Assembly (NCBI GenBank): GCA_905195085.1
Contig: CAJJUK010000001.1
Location: 41,719-105,718, forward strand
From: an uncultured Christensenella sp.
Lineage (GTDB): Bacteria > Bacillota > Clostridia > Christensenellales > UBA1242
Direction: 5' to 3'
Length of the DNA stretch: 64,000 nt
Shown here: piece by piece, positions 12,198 through 19,384 of the stretch
How the letters are laid out: every line of letters starts with the position of its first letter
Numbering within the stretch: position 1 is the stretch's first letter
Translations under genes and position numbers: made by a program
The notes under the pieces: model-generated
Told to the model about the DNA's origin: nothing
Database searches by the model: none
The model's input: the letters and a program-made list of their open reading frames with translations, nothing else

Positions 12198-12201
<4 letters not shown>
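11758..12201 (+). CDS. rpiB: Ribose-5-phosphate isomerase B
   Basis: ASDHRGY... and GIFICGSGIGMSIAANR are typical RpiB/LacAB motifs. The ATGA start overlaps the upstream stop. Confidence 0.92.
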
Positions 12202-14013
<1,812 letters not shown>

Positions 14014-14037
14014 ATTTGAAAGGGTTGGAGAAAAGAT

Positions 14038-14250
14038 ATGAAACCACAAAGTGAAAGAAAAGAAATTCAACTTGTTGATTATTGTTTGGATGATGACAAT
14101 GATAATTATAATCGAAGAGATTATGAAAACAGATTGATGCGTAATGCTATTGAAGACATTAGGAGTCGTGCAACATCTAATAGTTGGTGTAATAGAGTCG
14201 TTTTGCCAGACGAGCTTGATAAGAAACTTGATAAAATCATTGAAAGATGA
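14038..14250 (+). CDS. Small acidic hypothetical protein (70 aa)
   Basis: GGAG lies 8 nt upstream. There is no terminator between the gap stop and this ORF. No family recognised. Confidence 0.5.
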   Translation: MKPQSERKEIQLVDYCLDDDNDNYNRRDYENRLMRNAIEDIRSRATSNSWCNRVVLPDELDKKLDKIIER

Positions 14251-14290
14251 TCTTTTCGCATTTTGAACAAGAAGATAAAAGGAAGATGTT

Positions 14291-15235
14291 ATGAAAAATC
14301 AATTGAACAGAGATTTGATTGAGGAGCTTAATGAAAGCAACAATCCAGAATTTTTGGATAATGTCAATGACAAGATTTATGATTTGATTTCTTGCACAAT
14401 CAGTGACATATCTTTAAAATCGCCTTTTATCAAAACTGACAAATGTGTTCTTCTTCCTGTCAATGAACTTTACACTGGTGCGGTTTCACAGTTGTCGGAA
14501 TTCACATACTTCCTTGGTGTTGAAAATCCTCAGATTGAATTTAATTCCAAGAAAAAGAGCAACTTTTGGAAAAATTTATGGAGAGAATTCAGAGCTTCTT
14601 GGAGACTGGGCAAGAAGAAATATAAAAAACAAAAAAACACTCTTTCAACAGACCCAGTTGACAAATATAATATGAATGATTTTAAGCATGACATTGTCAA
14701 GGTTATGGCGGATTATTTAAGTCAAACCTCTGTGATTTATGAGTACACTTCTCATCTTTCAATTGTTGGAATTGATGATTTTGGAACAAATGTCAGAATC
14801 AATATCATCGTCTGCTGTTATGATTCTCGTAAAAACCTTTACAAAATCTATAATCAGCGAAAAAATAAATATTTTGTTGTTGATTTTGGCAACAGGTTTT
14901 CTAATATCAGTTACAAAACAAAAACGTGTGGGCTTATCTATATTGACATGATTAAACTTATAAACATTCTCTATTCAAAGAACTACAACAAAATTCCAAA
15001 TCAAATCTTGGTGGAAAGTTTGCTGTTTAATTGCCCAAATGTTTTGTTTGACAATAATGATGTCTATAAAACTTTTGTCAATGTTGCAAATTACATTCGT
15101 CTTGCAAGTCCACAATCTTTCCTTTCAATTTGTGACGGAAGCAAGACAATTTTTCAAGACGAACTCATAACAAAAAACAATTCTCATCTTGATTACAGCA
15201 AAATAATCGGTATGCTTGATAATTTTAAGTATTAA
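14291..15235 (+). CDS. Hypothetical protein with nucleotidyltransferase-fold-like layout (tentative)
   Basis: 314 aa with an AAGGAAG SD. LYTGAVSQLSEFTYFLGV sits where hG[GS]x9-13[DE]h[DE]h would be. The distal helix region IKLINILYSKNY..ILVESLLFNCPNVLF resembles SMODS/CD-NTase-type proteins. This resemblance is from memory only. Confidence 0.4.
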   Translation: MKNQLNRDLIEELNESNNPEFLDNVNDKIYDLISCTISDISLKSPFIKTDKCVLLPVNELYTGAVSQLSEFTYFLGVENPQIEFNSKKKSNFWKNLWREFRASWRLGKKKYKKQKNTLSTDPVDKYNMNDFKHDIVKVMADYLSQTSVIYEYTSHLSIVGIDDFGTNVRINIIVCCYDSRKNLYKIYNQRKNKYFVVDFGNRFSNISYKTKTCGLIYIDMIKLINILYSKNYNKIPNQILVESLLFNCPNVLFDNNDVYKTFVNVANYIRLASPQSFLSICDGSKTIFQDELITKNNSHLDYSKIIGMLDNFKY

Positions 15236-15291
15236 TCGGCAATGTTGTATATTTTTCGACATTTTGCAAATCCTATTTGTAGGAGGAGCAA

Positions 15292-15486
15292 ATGAAAGAA
15301 ATTTGGATGGTTGTTGGTTTTGGTGCCGGACTTGTGACAGGGGCACTTCTCTACAAACATTGTGAAGATGCAAAGAAACTTGTCAACAAGGGTGAAAAAG
15401 CCGTAAAAAAAGAGGTCGAAAACTTGAAAGAAGCGGTCAAAAAACCACAAAAGGCAATGAAACAACAAACTAAAACAGAAAATTAA
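15292..15486 (+). CDS. YtxH-like small membrane-anchored protein
   Basis: N-terminal TM helix (WMVVGFGAGLVTGALLY) followed by a Lys/Glu-rich helix. Strong SD AGGAGGAG. Confidence 0.6.
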   Translation: MKEIWMVVGFGAGLVTGALLYKHCEDAKKLVNKGEKAVKKEVENLKEAVKKPQKAMKQQTKTEN

Positions 15487-15489
15487 ATA

Positions 15490-15527
15490 AAAAAGCAGAA
15501 TTAGATTAATTCTGCTTTATTTTTTGT
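15490..15527 (+). terminator. Rho-independent terminator
   Basis: AGCAGAATTA-gat-TAATTCTGCT followed by TTTATTTTTT. Confidence 0.8.
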
Positions 15528-15537
15528 TTTGATTAAC

Positions 15538-15567
15538 AAAAAAGCAAGGACATTGACCTTGCTTTTT
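15538..15567. terminator. Bidirectional terminator (3' end of SRP RNA)
   Basis: GCAAGG-acattga-CCTTGC is flanked by an A-run and a T-run, directly after the SRP RNA 3' end on the minus strand. Confidence 0.75.
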
Positions 15568-15570
15568 TCA

Positions 15571-15837
15571 TACTAGGCGAATGCTTCGTTACAATCTGAC
15601 TGACTGCCTCGCAGTTTTTCAACTCCACCAAAGTTTCCTCATGGCACATCAACTTATCTTCTTAATGATGCTTCCGTCAGGACCTGACATGGTTCGAAGG
15701 AGTCAATTGCATAAGACCTTAATTTCACCATCAAAAAGCTACGCACATATTCAACCAAATTGCACCTAGGCAAGCGTTCAATCCTGCTGTAGCGGATTGC
15801 AGGTTACAGGGCACCGCTAACTCCCCATCTAGCCTAG
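15571..15837 (-). ncRNA. ffs: Signal recognition particle RNA, long (Bacillus-type, with Alu domain)
   Basis: The minus strand contains the domain IV core GUCAGGUCCUGACGGAAGC. It also has an Alu-like 5' region GGGGAGUUAGCGGUGCCCUGUAACCUGCAAUCCGCU. 5' CUAGGC pairs with 3' GCCUAG. A consensus promoter and a terminator flank it. Confidence 0.85.
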
Positions 15838-16032: not shown

Positions 16033-16938
16033 ATGTTAGAGAAAATCTTGCCTGATAAGTTCTACAAAATCTTGTCCGAAAAAGTGAATTTGAAAGCGGT
16101 TAATGAAATCAGACTTCGTGCAGACAAGCCGGTTGTGATCAATGTCAGCGGAAAGATGTATTTCTTATCCGAAAATGGTGTGACTGGCAATGTGAACAAC
16201 AGTCTTTATGCCAGCAAGATTATGATTGAAGATGTCATTTTCAGGGCAAGCGAATGTTCCATCTACTCCGTCAATGAACAGATAAAAAAGGGGTTTATTG
16301 TCACAGATGATGCTGTCAGAATTGGTATTGGTGGAAATTTGATTGAAGAGAACGGACACATAAAAACAATGACAAACTTTTGCAGTTGCAACATCAGAGT
16401 TCCACACGTCGTGAAAAATTGCAGTTTGACAGCCTATCCATTTATGGTTTCTGAAAGTGGAGTGGCAAACACCTTGGTCATTTCTCCGCCAGCTTGTGGA
16501 AAGACGACATTTTTGCGTGATTTTGTCTATCAACTCAGTGAACGTAATCTTCCATATAACATTCTTCTACTGGACGAGAGAGGGGAACTTGATTGCGGAA
16601 TAAACTCAAAGTTTACTGACAAGATTGCATTCGCAACAAAAAAAGTTGGATTTGAAAATGGCATTAGGTCGCTGTCACCAGACATTATTGTGACGGACGA
16701 AATCGGACAGGAAGAGGACATTGAAGCAATCAGATATGCAAGTTCTTGCGGGGTTAAAGTTTTGGCATCAACGCACGCTGACAACATGGAAACTTTTTGC
16801 AAAAAAGGACTTTTTCAAACGCTAATCAAAGAAAAGGTTTTCAAAAGATATGTTCTTCTTTCAAAGCGAAATGGTCCAGGGACTTTTGAGGGAATTTATG
16901 ACGAGAACTTCTCAAGAGTTTTCAGCAATTTCAAATGA
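16033..16938 (+). CDS. spoIIIAA: Stage III sporulation protein AA (ATPase)
   Basis: Walker A SPPACGKTTFLRD and Walker B IIVTDEIG. It is the first gene of an 8-gene spoIIIA-ordered cluster. Confidence 0.92.
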   Translation: MLEKILPDKFYKILSEKVNLKAVNEIRLRADKPVVINVSGKMYFLSENGVTGNVNNSLYASKIMIEDVIFRASECSIYSVNEQIKKGFIVTDDAVRIGIGGNLIEENGHIKTMTNFCSCNIRVPHVVKNCSLTAYPFMVSESGVANTLVISPPACGKTTFLRDFVYQLSERNLPYNILLLDERGELDCGINSKFTDKIAFATKKVGFENGIRSLSPDIIVTDEIGQEEDIEAIRYASSCGVKVLASTHADNMETFCKKGLFQTLIKEKVFKRYVLLSKRNGPGTFEGIYDENFSRVFSNFK

Positions 16939-16952
16939 TTTTTGGAGGGGTT

Positions 16953-17447
16953 ATGAAATATGTCTTGATTGTTTTTATTTTTTGCTTGTGTGCACTTGTG
17001 GGTTACATTTTTTCGGTCAAATATATGAAAAGAAAAAAGTTCTTCAACTCTTTGATTGTTTTTGCTGACAAGTTGTCACTGGAAATTAATTTTTCAAGAG
17101 AACGTTTAAAGGTGTTGCTTGAGAATTTTGACTCTGCAAACAAGAAAAACCTTCTTGGAATTGATGAAAAATTTGTGGAGTATTTGGACAAAAAAATTGA
17201 ACTCACATCCGAGAACATCTTCAAAAAGGCCGATGTTTTAAAGAATGACGAAAAAGATTTTATTCTGCTCTTTTTGAAAACATTGGGCAGAAGCGATGTT
17301 GAAAATCAAACAAAAGAAATTCAAAACTTTATTTCTCGATTTAATGAAATGAAAACTCAATGCGACACCGAACAAAAGAAATATGGCTCATTGTCTTTGA
17401 AACTTGGCATTGTTGCAGGGTTGTTTTGGGTGGTTATTTTGCTTTAG
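16953..17447 (+). CDS. spoIIIAB: Stage III sporulation protein AB
   Basis: The N-terminal TM helix, ~165-aa size and operon position fit SpoIIIAB. ATG 16953 follows GGAGGGG. Confidence 0.8.
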   Translation: MKYVLIVFIFCLCALVGYIFSVKYMKRKKFFNSLIVFADKLSLEINFSRERLKVLLENFDSANKKNLLGIDEKFVEYLDKKIELTSENIFKKADVLKNDEKDFILLFLKTLGRSDVENQTKEIQNFISRFNEMKTQCDTEQKKYGSLSLKLGIVAGLFWVVILL

Positions 17448-17471
17448 TTCAGATTCCAAGAAGGAGTGTTT

Positions 17472-17684
17472 ATGGATGTTGACATCATTTTCAAAATTGC
17501 GGCAATCGGTATTTTGACCGCTGTGATAAGTCAAATTCTCAAAAACAGTGGAAAGGAAGACATCTCGACATTGGCGACACTTGCTGGTGTTGTCATTGTT
17601 CTGTTTATGGTCTTGGGGCTTATCAGCGAACTGTTCACTTCAATCAAAACGATTTTCAATTTCAGTTTGTTGCCGTTCATATAA
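17472..17684 (+). CDS. spoIIIAC: Stage III sporulation protein AC
   Basis: Small 2-TM protein MDVDIIFKIAAIGILTAV..., paralogous to the next gene. AAGGAG lies 5 nt upstream. Confidence 0.88.
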   Translation: MDVDIIFKIAAIGILTAVISQILKNSGKEDISTLATLAGVVIVLFMVLGLISELFTSIKTIFNFSLLPFI

Positions 17685-17711
17685 AAACGAAGATTGCAAA
17701 AAGGAGGGCAA

Positions 17712-18104
17712 ATGGACACAATTTTCAAAATTATAGGCATTGCACTTATCACTTGTGTAACTTGTCTGATAATCAAACCTGTTCGGCCAGATTTTGCGAT
17801 TTTCATTTCTATTGTTGGCGGAATTATCATCATCTTTTTTCTGCTTTCATATCTTTCAGGAATTTTTGACATTTTCAACAACATCTTTGAAATTTCTGGA
17901 GTCAATGGTTCGCTTTATGGAGTGATTTTCAAAATTATTGGTGTTGGATATTTGACAGAGTTTACGGCGAGCATTTGCAGTGACACGGGGAATAACAGCC
18001 TTGGAGATAAAGTGCTTTTGGGAGGGAAAATTATCATACTTGTCATGGCTCTTCCTATTGTGACAAGTATTTTGGACATTGTCATGGAATTGTTGCCACA
18101 ATGA
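17712..18104 (+). CDS. spoIIIAD: Stage III sporulation protein AD
   Basis: MDTIFKIIGIALITCV... with 4 TM helices. AGGAGGG SD. Operon position fits. Confidence 0.88.
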   Translation: MDTIFKIIGIALITCVTCLIIKPVRPDFAIFISIVGGIIIIFFLLSYLSGIFDIFNNIFEISGVNGSLYGVIFKIIGVGYLTEFTASICSDTGNNSLGDKVLLGGKIIILVMALPIVTSILDIVMELLPQ

Positions 18105-19384
18105 TGAAGAGAAGATTGTTTCGTCCGCCAAAAAGGAAGAGCAGGCGGAGAAAATTTTATCCAATTTTTGTTGTCTTATTGATTTTTGTTTCTTGTTTTT
18201 ATGGCAGATTTGACGTTGTGACTGGTTTTGAAAGAAACAACGGAATTGCTTATGCAACTTCTTCAGTCGAGGCTGAAAGCACGGAAGAGTTGGAAGAAAT
18301 GCTTCAAGAAGAAATTGATAAACAAATTGGCAACCTTGATTTCTCTGGCATTGAAGACATAATTTCAAAATTGAGCACCGATGCAAAAAATCTTTTTAAT
18401 TCCAATTCATTTGTTGAGAAAGTAAGTTATGTCATATCTGGTGAATATGCCGAAAATTCTGAAAATTTCTTTTCTGCAGTCCTTTCAATCTTCTGGCAGG
18501 GTTTGAAAGATTATCTTCCAATCATCGGAAGCATAATATCCATTTCCATTTTGGGTGGCATGGTTTCCAACTTGAAACCTAACACAAATGGAAAATCTGT
18601 TGGAAACATCATTCACTTTGTCACTTATGGTGTTGTCATCATTTTCCTTGGAGTTTCACTTGTGGAAATCATCAAAGTGACAACCACAACACTTACATCA
18701 GTGAAAAATATGTTTGATGGGATTTTCCCAATTTTGCTGACACTGTTGACAGCTGTTGGCGGAACAGTCTCGGTGGGAATTTATCAGCCAGCAATTGCAC
18801 TTCTGAGCAATGTTTTCATTTCTCTTATCACATATATCTTTCTTCCGCTTTTCATTTTTTCTATGGTTTTCTCAATTGTCGGAAATCTCTCAAACAACAT
18901 AAAACTGGACAAATTTGTTTCTTTTTTGCAAGGGGCGTTCAAGTGGACAATTGGTCTTTGTTTTACGATTTTTCTTGGGTTTGTGAGCATTCAAGGAATC
19001 ATGGCAGGGGCTGTTGACGGGCTTTCAATAAGGACAGCGAAATATGCAATCAAGAGTTATATTCCTGTTGTCGGCGGATATGTCTCTGACGGACTTTCCA
19101 TCATCATGGCAAGCAGTATGTTGATTAAAAATGCGGTTGGTGGTGTTGGACTTTTCTTACTTTTTTCCAGTGTGATTTCGCCAGTCATTAACCTTGCAAT
19201 CTTCATTCTTTCGCTGAAGTTTATGGCTGGAATAATTGAACCAATAGGCGACAAAAAGACGGCAAATTTCATAAGCGACATATCCAAAAGTTTGTCACTT
19301 CTTGTTGCGCTTCTTGTTGCAGTTTCGTTCATGTATTTGGTTATGACCGGGCTGATTATGTGCAGTGCCAATTTGGTGATTTAA
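18101..19384 (+). CDS. spoIIIAE: Stage III sporulation protein AE
   Basis: 427-aa polytopic membrane protein at the AE position. Confidence 0.88.
   Translation: MMKRRLFRPPKRKSRRRKFYPIFVVLLIFVSCFYGRFDVVTGFERNNGIAYATSSVEAESTEELEEMLQEEIDKQIGNLDFSGIEDIISKLSTDAKNLFNSNSFVEKVSYVISGEYAENSENFFSAVLSIFWQGLKDYLPIIGSIISISILGGMVSNLKPNTNGKSVGNIIHFVTYGVVIIFLGVSLVEIIKVTTTTLTSVKNMFDGIFPILLTLLTAVGGTVSVGIYQPAIALLSNVFISLITYIFLPLFIFSMVFSIVGNLSNNIKLDKFVSFLQGAFKWTIGLCFTIFLGFVSIQGIMAGAVDGLSIRTAKYAIKSYIPVVGGYVSDGLSIIMASSMLIKNAVGGVGLFLLFSSVISPVINLAIFILSLKFMAGIIEPIGDKKTANFISDISKSLSLLVALLVAVSFMYLVMTGLIMCSANLVI

Follow-up and report, generated by a model that had tools for sequence, protein, structure and literature searches.

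The subject of this analysis is ORF314, a 314-amino-acid protein encoded behind the gap gene in a 64-kb window, by which we mean the whole stretch of 64,000 nucleotides that was analyzed, taken from contig CAJJUK010000001.1 of an uncultured Christensenella sp. We describe it here as a re-purposed, probably noncatalytic protein with the fold of CD-NTases, the nucleotidyltransferases that resemble cGAS and DncV. All coordinates are positions in the window. Four open reading frames (ORFs) follow one another on the + strand: gap at 13006-14013 (335 amino acids; Pfam matches Gp_dh_N at 4e-35 and Gp_dh_C at 1.5e-65), ORF70 at 14038-14250 (70 amino acids), ORF314 at 14291-15235, which was characterized by an AF2 model, Foldseek and a family profile, and ORF64 at 15292-15486 (64 amino acids). 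The start codon of gap is the ATG at 13006, with AAGGAGAG just before it; a 374-amino-acid ORF that opens at 12889 represents an upstream extension. A ribosome-binding site is present before each of ORF70, ORF314, and ORF64.

No terminator-like hairpin was found on the + strand between gap and ORF64, and the gap-ORF70 and ORF70-ORF314 spacers folded no better than shuffled sequence. An intrinsic terminator is located at 15492-15518 on the + strand (12-bp stem followed by a U-run; folding free energy [ΔG], -12.7; z, -4.1). It closes the gap-ORF70-ORF314-ORF64 transcription unit. Another hairpin, at 15538-15568, is bidirectional, lying between an A-run and a T-run directly 3' of a gene for the signal recognition particle (SRP) RNA that converges on the unit. 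The + strand folds here with a ΔG of -13.6 (z, -5.7) and the - strand with one of -14.7 (z, -5.3). The hairpin is mainly the terminator of the SRP RNA and serves also as a back-up for the + strand unit. Coordinates, hairpin scan, and shuffles therefore agree with the initial annotation of this region, which had described three + strand ORFs after gap without an internal terminator and had placed terminators only after ORF64. From this layout, gap is the probable cotranscription partner of ORF314.

Clade E CD-NTases (CdnE) are the cyclases of CBASS (cyclic oligonucleotide-based antiphage signaling system) anti-phage systems. As a single sequence, ORF314 had no significant match in Pfam, NCBIfam, PADLOC, or PHROGs. 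It does have relatives: 95 close homologs, all of approximately 315 amino acids, share 34-98% identity with it, and an exhaustive profile search returned 114 family clusters at 50% identity. Of these, 64 scored below 1e-30, and almost every one spans the full length. An AF2 model built on 40 homologs reached a predicted local distance difference test score (pLDDT) of 86 and a predicted template modeling score of 0.81. When this model was compared with the PDB by Foldseek, the top 50 matches were all CD-NTases. RmCdnE 6E0K of clade E was the best match (E value, 7.9e-8; template modeling scores, 0.62/0.66), followed by EmCdnE, LpCdnE, ClCdnE, and a STING-associated CdnE, and then by cGAS, CdnC, DncV, CdnD, and CdnB. 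The viral structures of BFVD yielded nothing at an E value below 0.01.

Profile searches against the PDB pointed to the same proteins. The 40-sequence profile (A1) placed three CdnE entries on top, weakly (0.0036), and a profile of 67 true family members from which outgroups had been removed (A4) matched RmCdnE 6e0k at 1.7e-11, EmCdnE 6e0m at 2.8e-10, and LpCdnE 7x4f at 7.3e-6. The E values obtained with a further profile, A2 (1e-16), were set aside, because outgroups in its alignment may have inflated them. ORF314 is a homolog of CD-NTases and is closest to CdnE. The initial annotation had proposed a nucleotidyltransferase (NTase) fold of the SMODS type and had allowed for the outcome that structure and profile searches give no match to such a fold; both kinds of search gave matches, and the fold assignment stands.

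The likeness to CdnE (RmCdnE 6E0K/6E0L, EmCdnE 6E0M-O, LpCdnE 7X4F, and ClCdnE 7X4A) consists in a Pol-beta-like core and a C-terminal helical lobe, a similar length of about 300 amino acids, homology at the profile level, and common scaffold residues. The last comprise, given as LpCdnE/ORF314, Y98/Y126, D106/D134, N181/N205, K185/K209, E224/E242, and P231/P249; S69 and N267 of ORF314 are likewise common to CdnE. The CD_NTase_C-like lobe is encoded by 14888-15232 (+ strand), as supported by hidden Markov model (HMM) alignments and by weak PF26305 and PADLOC matches in relatives, and it contains a conserved NQIxVESLLxNCP helix (E242, S243, and P249), for which the CdnE counterpart reads ..ECLvYNvP... 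The PF26305 (CD_NTase_C) matches had been precomputed for some homologs. They were weak and were not reproduced by hmmscan of nine homologs, and this lead was therefore treated as a hint only until the profile and structure searches had confirmed it.

We also considered whether the family is already catalogued in PADLOC, given that 39 of 74 members matched a CBASS cyclase model with a best E value of 7.8e-48. This was rejected. The best match belongs to P0199, a canonical cyclase picked up in the tail of the profile search, and true family members match PADLOC cyclase models weakly, from 1e-9 to 1e-3, and through the C-terminal lobe only.

To describe the active site, residue roles were carried over from LpCdnE to ORF314 through HMM alignments to CdnE structures. 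According to crystallography of LpCdnE, Asp65, Asp67, and Asp139 hold the Mg ions, and Ser53, Asn59, Lys201, and Ser220 are ligands of the donor gamma-phosphate; the base of the donor is stacked by Tyr221, that of the acceptor is recognized by Gln51 and Asn173, and Asn178 belongs to lid 2 (PMC10442399). The N-terminal part of ORF314 was aligned identically to four CdnE structures, and this alignment fits the model strands at residues 52-56 and 71-77. In this mapping, N58-E59 (14462-14467, + strand) corresponds to LpCdnE G52-S53, the G[GS] motif of which S53 binds the gamma-phosphate. S69-E70-F71-T72 (14495-14506, + strand), at the start of strand beta2, corresponds to S64-D65-V66-D67 with its two Mg ligands. 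N171 (14801-14803, + strand) corresponds to the Mg ligand D139, which EmCdnE, LpCdnE, and ClCdnE carry as the Asp within ..ADV[IV]P... Thus, where CdnE has the metal triad D/D/D and G[GS], ORF314 has E/T/N and N-E. The substrate contacts are exchanged as well: V65, N225, and Q238 take the places of the gamma-phosphate ligands N59, K201, and S220; I239 replaces the base-stacking Y221; V57 and V197 replace the acceptor-base readers Q51 and N173 (the latter in lid 1); and R202 stands at N178 of lid 2.

ORF314 lacks hG[GS], [DE]h[DE]h, the third acid, and the contacts to the donor triphosphate and base, which are the tested features that define an active CD-NTase, and it likewise lacks the features tested for a CBASS system; for this reason we filed it neither as an active CD-NTase nor as CBASS. 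The initial annotation had read its motifs from peptide strings that we place at residues 60-77 (LYTGAVSQLSEFTYFLGV), 167-176 (NVRINIIVCC), and 219-253 (IKLINILYSKNY...NCPNVLF). Its placement of E-F-T at [DE]h[DE] and of N171 as the third acid was correct. Its implied choice of T-G63-A as G[GS] was not, the true counterpart being N58-E59. That the enzyme is inactive or re-purposed, as it had also suggested, is in line with the acids substituted in the HMM alignments to CdnE structures.

The same positions were counted in 67 family representatives. All three acids occur together in none of them, and only a single one retains G[SG], with Glu or Asp at position 59 in 63/67. An acid is found at position 70 in 24 representatives and at position 72 in 44, while 9 have acids at both positions; position 171 is N in 38 and acidic in 3. 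Within the window's own clade, 40 sequences show 15 different combinations of residues at positions 70/72/171. The family has a conserved set of its own, comprising [N/G][E/D]58-59, Q81-x-E83-x-N85, G160, [DE]163-[FL]-G165, R202, N225, N237-Q238, S243, and S279. Among the acids, E83 is conserved in 56/67, D/E163 in 58/67, and D/E134 in 64/67.

Unlike CdnE, ORF314 carries an extra helix and a Lys-rich loop, together approximately 35-45 amino acids, after beta2. The loop, rich in Lys and Arg and predicted to be disordered, is encoded by 14603-14665 on the + strand (residues 105-125, RLGKKKYKKQKNTL...). Confidence of the model drops here, with a pLDDT of 50-61 over residues 101-120 and below 50 at residues 116-122. 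Residues 92-127 include 11 K+R, and a K-run is present in the family consensus. The alignments of the profile to PDB entries skip approximately query residues 82-128; the loop and the helix preceding it have no CdnE counterpart, yet they are found family-wide.

ORF314 is under strong purifying selection. Compared with a conspecific genome (L009 in our survey of loci), the ratio of nonsynonymous to synonymous substitution rates (dN/dS) was 0.026 for ORF314, 0.039 for gap, and 0.074 for TM254, a 254-amino-acid protein encoded upstream of gap. For the survey, one genome was taken per GTDB species, and the 54 loci returned represent the carriers rather than all UBA1242 genomes. All 54 derive from metagenome-assembled genomes of uncultured gut Clostridia, several of which are named Candidatus Caccovivens. 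Caccovivens belongs to family UBA1242 of the GTDB order Christensenellales (PMC8035907).

In a scan of the 54 species loci, gap was located directly upstream of the ORF314 homolog in each of the 60 loci whose contig included both genes; the spacer had a median length of 29 bp, and gap was 74-99% identical. The constant block consists of rpiB, TM254, gap, and ORF314. It is embedded in a wider order of obg, yhbY, x, rsfS, a low-molecular-weight phosphatase gene, rpiB, TM254, gap, ORF314, ORF64, spoIIIAA-AH, asp23, and nusB. The arrangement of gap and ORF314 is fixed and ancestral, and ORF314 therefore behaves as a core gene, not as part of an accessory module appended to gap, as had been suggested at first. 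More distant family members, of approximately 20-35% identity, are also found in housekeeping surroundings, though not after gap: two (L005 and L063) follow serS at a distance of 17-20 bp, and others are near holB, RNase Y, or the gene of ribosomal protein L9 together with a xerC-like gene. The linkage to gap is therefore lineage-specific, and the earlier question of whether ORF314 always neighbors gap can be answered with yes for this lineage and with no for distant homologs.

No CBASS effector or Cap genes were present beside ORF314 in the window, at the 54 species loci, or beside the distant members, and no match to ORF314 was found among 50,697 phage and 72,556 plasmid records. In CBASS, the cyclase gene adjoins that of an effector (among others, a patatin, endonuclease, TM, TIR, or SAVED protein), in some cases along with Cap2/Cap3 or HORMA/TRIP13. 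CBASS is patchy or mobile, in defense islands, plasmids, or prophages, whereas the ORF314 locus has a housekeeping context that is fixed across 54 species and includes neither an effector nor a Cap neighbor. The ORF314 family is stand-alone and vertically inherited, and it tends to follow a highly expressed housekeeping gene.

Taken together, we consider it fairly probable that ORF314 is cotranscribed with gap and that its role, be it in binding, scaffolding, or regulation, does not involve nucleotidyl transfer. The two-lobed fold has been kept, and in Christensenellales UBA1242 (Caccovivens and relatives) ORF314 is now a core protein that stands alone and is inherited vertically. According to this model, the machinery that binds two nucleoside triphosphates and two metals has been lost. 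As the gene lies approximately 29 bp behind gap with no terminator in between, the gap transcript is most likely a constitutive source of ORF314 and would usually also yield the small membrane protein ORF64. The protein itself most likely acts as a binder, scaffold, or regulator. Its putative functional cleft, as predicted from the conserved residues, would be re-lined by [N/G][E/D]59, S69, Q81-x-E83-x-N85, R202, N225, Q238, and E242-S243, and the flexible Lys-rich loop that is specific to the family would be suited to contact with a polyanion, e.g., nucleic acid or membrane.

Eukaryotic MiD49/MiD51 and MAB21L1/2 have kept a cGAS-like fold, have lost the catalytic acids, are under selection, and serve as adaptors or ligand binders. 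They may offer the best functional analogy for ORF314. It should be noted that homology to them is demonstrated only at the level of the common superfamily; they were not among the top 50 Foldseek matches of ORF314, and they belong to another domain of life and have other partners. To our knowledge, bacterial CD-NTases are known almost only as producers of CBASS signals, that is, as mobile, patchily distributed proteins that are always paired with an effector. The ORF314 family is instead fixed in the core genome in single copy, downstream of housekeeping genes with high expression, and it has lost every catalytic and substrate-binding residue and gained motifs of its own. In the literature on inactive or orphan CD-NTases and on Caccovivens, no description of the family was found. 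If its function were found, this would be a case of an immune enzyme scaffold re-used for bacterial cell physiology, parallel to the cGAS-fold pseudoenzymes of animals, and the uncultured, small-genome UBA1242 gut lineage would have one hypothetical core gene fewer. There is also a practical side to this, as genes of this kind could be wrongly labeled CBASS cyclases when annotated by homology only; weak matches to PADLOC cyclase models are seen for about half of the broader family.

Several points weigh against this reading. Taken one by one, the alignments of the N-terminal part with CdnE are weak, with domain E values well above 1, and it is from alignment that the loss of catalysis in ORF314 would follow. 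The second acid, D/E72, is kept in about two thirds of the wider family, and the conserved polar residues E/D59, E83, D134, D/E163, and E242 could form a relocated active site. Likewise, cotranscription from gap to ORF64, as far as the terminator at 15492-15518, is suggested by the spacing of the genes and the absence of hairpins between them. Finally, the linkage to gap is absent from distant lineages, and gap may for that reason provide a convenient expression context instead of a tie to glycolysis.

A more specific version of events can be put forward only tentatively. A CBASS-type cyclase could have been domesticated in low-GC gut Firmicutes to become a core protein whose active or ligand site is new and conserved and whose housekeeping function has not been described so far. 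Its signature would be [N/G][E/D] in place of G[GS], Q-x-E-x-N after beta2, R202, N225, Q238, and the Lys-rich loop. Such a protein could perform new chemistry on the NTase scaffold, or it could sense nucleotides or nucleic acids in connection with central metabolism or translation, a tie suggested by the fact that the gene follows gap in one lineage and serS in another. If true, bacteria would have an equivalent of what is known for MAB21/MiD51 in eukaryotes.

The strong conservation of acids that are foreign to CdnE also bears on whether ORF314 is still an enzyme, i.e., a nucleotidyltransferase, transferase, or hydrolase with migrated catalytic residues. In that case E59, E83, D/E163, and, in many relatives, D/E72 could, for example, coordinate the metal, and a nucleotide-derived molecule would be made or modified for a housekeeping purpose. 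We regard this as unlikely, and it stays alive through the unusually strong conservation of E59, E83, and D163, to which E/D134 can be added. The retention of D/E72 in the majority of representatives and the very low dN/dS of ORF314 also speak for it, and some apparent pseudoenzymes do have migrated catalytic residues, as noted in a review (PMC10211241). However, all four gamma-phosphate ligands, the stacking Tyr, and both acceptor-base readers are replaced, three of these positions by hydrophobic residues (V57, V65, and V197), and an acid instead of the phosphate-binding Ser is unfavorable for the binding of a triphosphate. Positions 70/72/171 moreover vary freely within the window's own clade, which is not expected of catalytic residues.

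Another alternative had been raised in the initial annotation, namely, that ORF70, ORF314, and ORF64 form a three-gene accessory module in which the small proteins partner an inactive NTase. The three ORFs are indeed contiguous on one strand, with no terminators between them and with ribosome-binding sites of their own. The proposal that they travel together did not hold for either of the small genes. Homologs of ORF70 amounted to 3 clusters in 5.8 billion proteins, with 80-90% identity and a length of 70 amino acids throughout. The gene occupies an insertion of approximately 250 bp in the gap-ORF314 spacer and was found in the window's own species only. No other species has it, not even the next relatives L040 (87%; spacer of 51 bp) and L010 (81%; spacer of 29 bp). 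In four other species, this slot is taken by small ORFs that are unrelated.

In comparison with the conspecific genome L009 (3747-3959), the dN/dS of ORF70 was 0.15, and the frame is open in all four variants, from which we conclude that ORF70 is probably translated. Its product had been called acidic, which is true to a mild degree (isoelectric point, 5.08; D+E 16 versus K+R 14). No significant match to ORF70 was obtained in Pfam, NCBIfam, PADLOC, or PHROG; matches to DUF4083 and to a two-transmembrane (2TM) effector (E value, 0.026) were rejected as low-complexity or coiled-coil noise. ORF70 is a young, species-specific insertion and lies outside both the conserved unit and the mechanism proposed for it.

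As a separate observation, the synonymous rate (dS) of ORF70 between genomes of the same species was 0.50, i.e., 2.5-5x that of the flanking genes (0.10-0.20), a pattern that points to locally accelerated evolution or to recombination with an allele that had diverged. The gap-ORF314 spacer, which normally measures 6-90 bp and in the window spans 14014-14290, has picked up unrelated small ORFs independently in approximately 5 of the 54 species. Those in the same slot as ORF70 encode 63-124 amino acids and are located at 3612-3986 in L014, 3748-3939 in L020, 3590-3850 in L025, and 3754-3987 in L033; coding constraint was computed for ORF70 alone. A resemblance between 'KEIQLEDF' and 'KEIQLVDY' had raised the idea that the slot ORFs are diverged copies of ORF70, and this was discarded when an all-against-all BLASTP showed no relationship. 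Lying behind a highly expressed gene, the spacer has the look of a place where small genes repeatedly land or arise.

ORF64 is more widespread. It consists of an N-terminal transmembrane helix (IWMVVGFGAGLVTGALLY) and a Lys/Glu-rich helical tail, and its homologs form 157 clusters, all of 54-88 amino acids. In the general layout of a Gly-rich N-terminal transmembrane helix and a charged helical tail it is like the YtxH family, to which it had been compared at first; HMM searches gave no support for this, with no match to Pfam YtxH (PF12732) at an E value of 1 or less. There was no significant match in NCBIfam, PADLOC, or PHROG either, and none of the 120 homologs listed had a precomputed Pfam domain. 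Matches of ORF64 to SCAB_CC, Prefoldin, and an Rz-like spanin were dismissed as low-complexity or coiled-coil noise. Within the lineage, identity over the first 49 residues is 60-96% and thus higher than that of ORF314, and no nonsynonymous change was seen in comparison with the conspecific genome. In most loci of the lineage, ORF64 follows ORF314 at approximately 60 bp. Nevertheless, it is not present in at least seven of the species that keep gap-ORF314 (L003, L048, L051, L052, and L054-L056), inverted in L053, where it is divergent from spoIIIAA, and absent beside the serS-linked homologs. ORF64 is at most a lineage-specific companion of ORF314.

Two side observations concern ORF64. A clade of 43-47% identity (L003, L004, L048, L051, L052, and L054-L056) keeps rpiB-TM254-gap-ORF314 and has neither ORF64 nor an adjacent spoIIIA operon. 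This joint absence implies that ORF64 may track the sporulation genes and not ORF314, and the clade itself may have lost or relocated its sporulation genes. In the window, the spacer between ORF314 and ORF64 (15236-15291) folds moderately (ΔG, -13.1; z, -2.15), without a U-run after the fold, and one stem pairs with the Shine-Dalgarno sequence of ORF64 (CCUAU...GUAGGAGG). This stem may serve translational control of ORF64 instead of termination.

An obligate three-gene module is refuted by this pattern of co-occurrence. The idea of a three-gene module is very improbable, the spacing of ORF64 in most species and the dN/dS of ORF70 being set against the losses and inversion just described and against the core, vertically inherited character of the gap-ORF314 unit. 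Least credible of all, and contradicted by the data on selection and conservation, is the notion that ORF314 is a decaying CBASS remnant, a cyclase inactivated after loss of its effector and without present function, for although its nearest relatives by fold and sequence are CBASS cyclases, its catalytic residues are lost, and no effector is present, the ORF is intact and full length in the 95 close homologs and nearly all 114 clusters, its dN/dS is as low as that of its housekeeping neighbors, its position is fixed across 54 species, and new conserved motifs foreign to CdnE have arisen.

The other constant neighbor, TM254 (12198-12962, + strand), overlaps the rpiB stop codon. It is composed of an N-terminal beta-alpha-beta domain and two long hydrophobic C-terminal helices, and it separates rpiB from gap in all species of the lineage, with 37-98% identity, evolving as fast as ORF314. 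No family match was obtained for TM254; a profile-to-PDB search was empty, and PADLOC gave noise only. It was considered as a possible sensor-2TM effector; the AF2 model, which was made from the single sequence, was poor (pLDDT, 52). PROSITE-style motif scans, a weak test, did not find pgk, tpiA, or eno in the window.

Downstream of the gap unit, and convergent to it, lies a full-length, Bacillus-type large SRP RNA (15573-15837, - strand; RF01854, 150.7 bits), whose 3' end is at 15573. Its promoter, at 15873-15845 on the - strand, is a perfect TTGACA-17-TATAAT. A 62-amino-acid ORF at 15581-15769 (+ strand) overlaps the SRP RNA and is spurious. The spoIIIAA-AB-AC-AD-AE... operon starts 200 bp past the SRP RNA promoter and covers 16033-19384 and beyond on the + strand (Spore_III_AA, 6.6e-61; Spore_III_AB, 2.3e-22). 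The host organism is an endospore former or the descendant of one.

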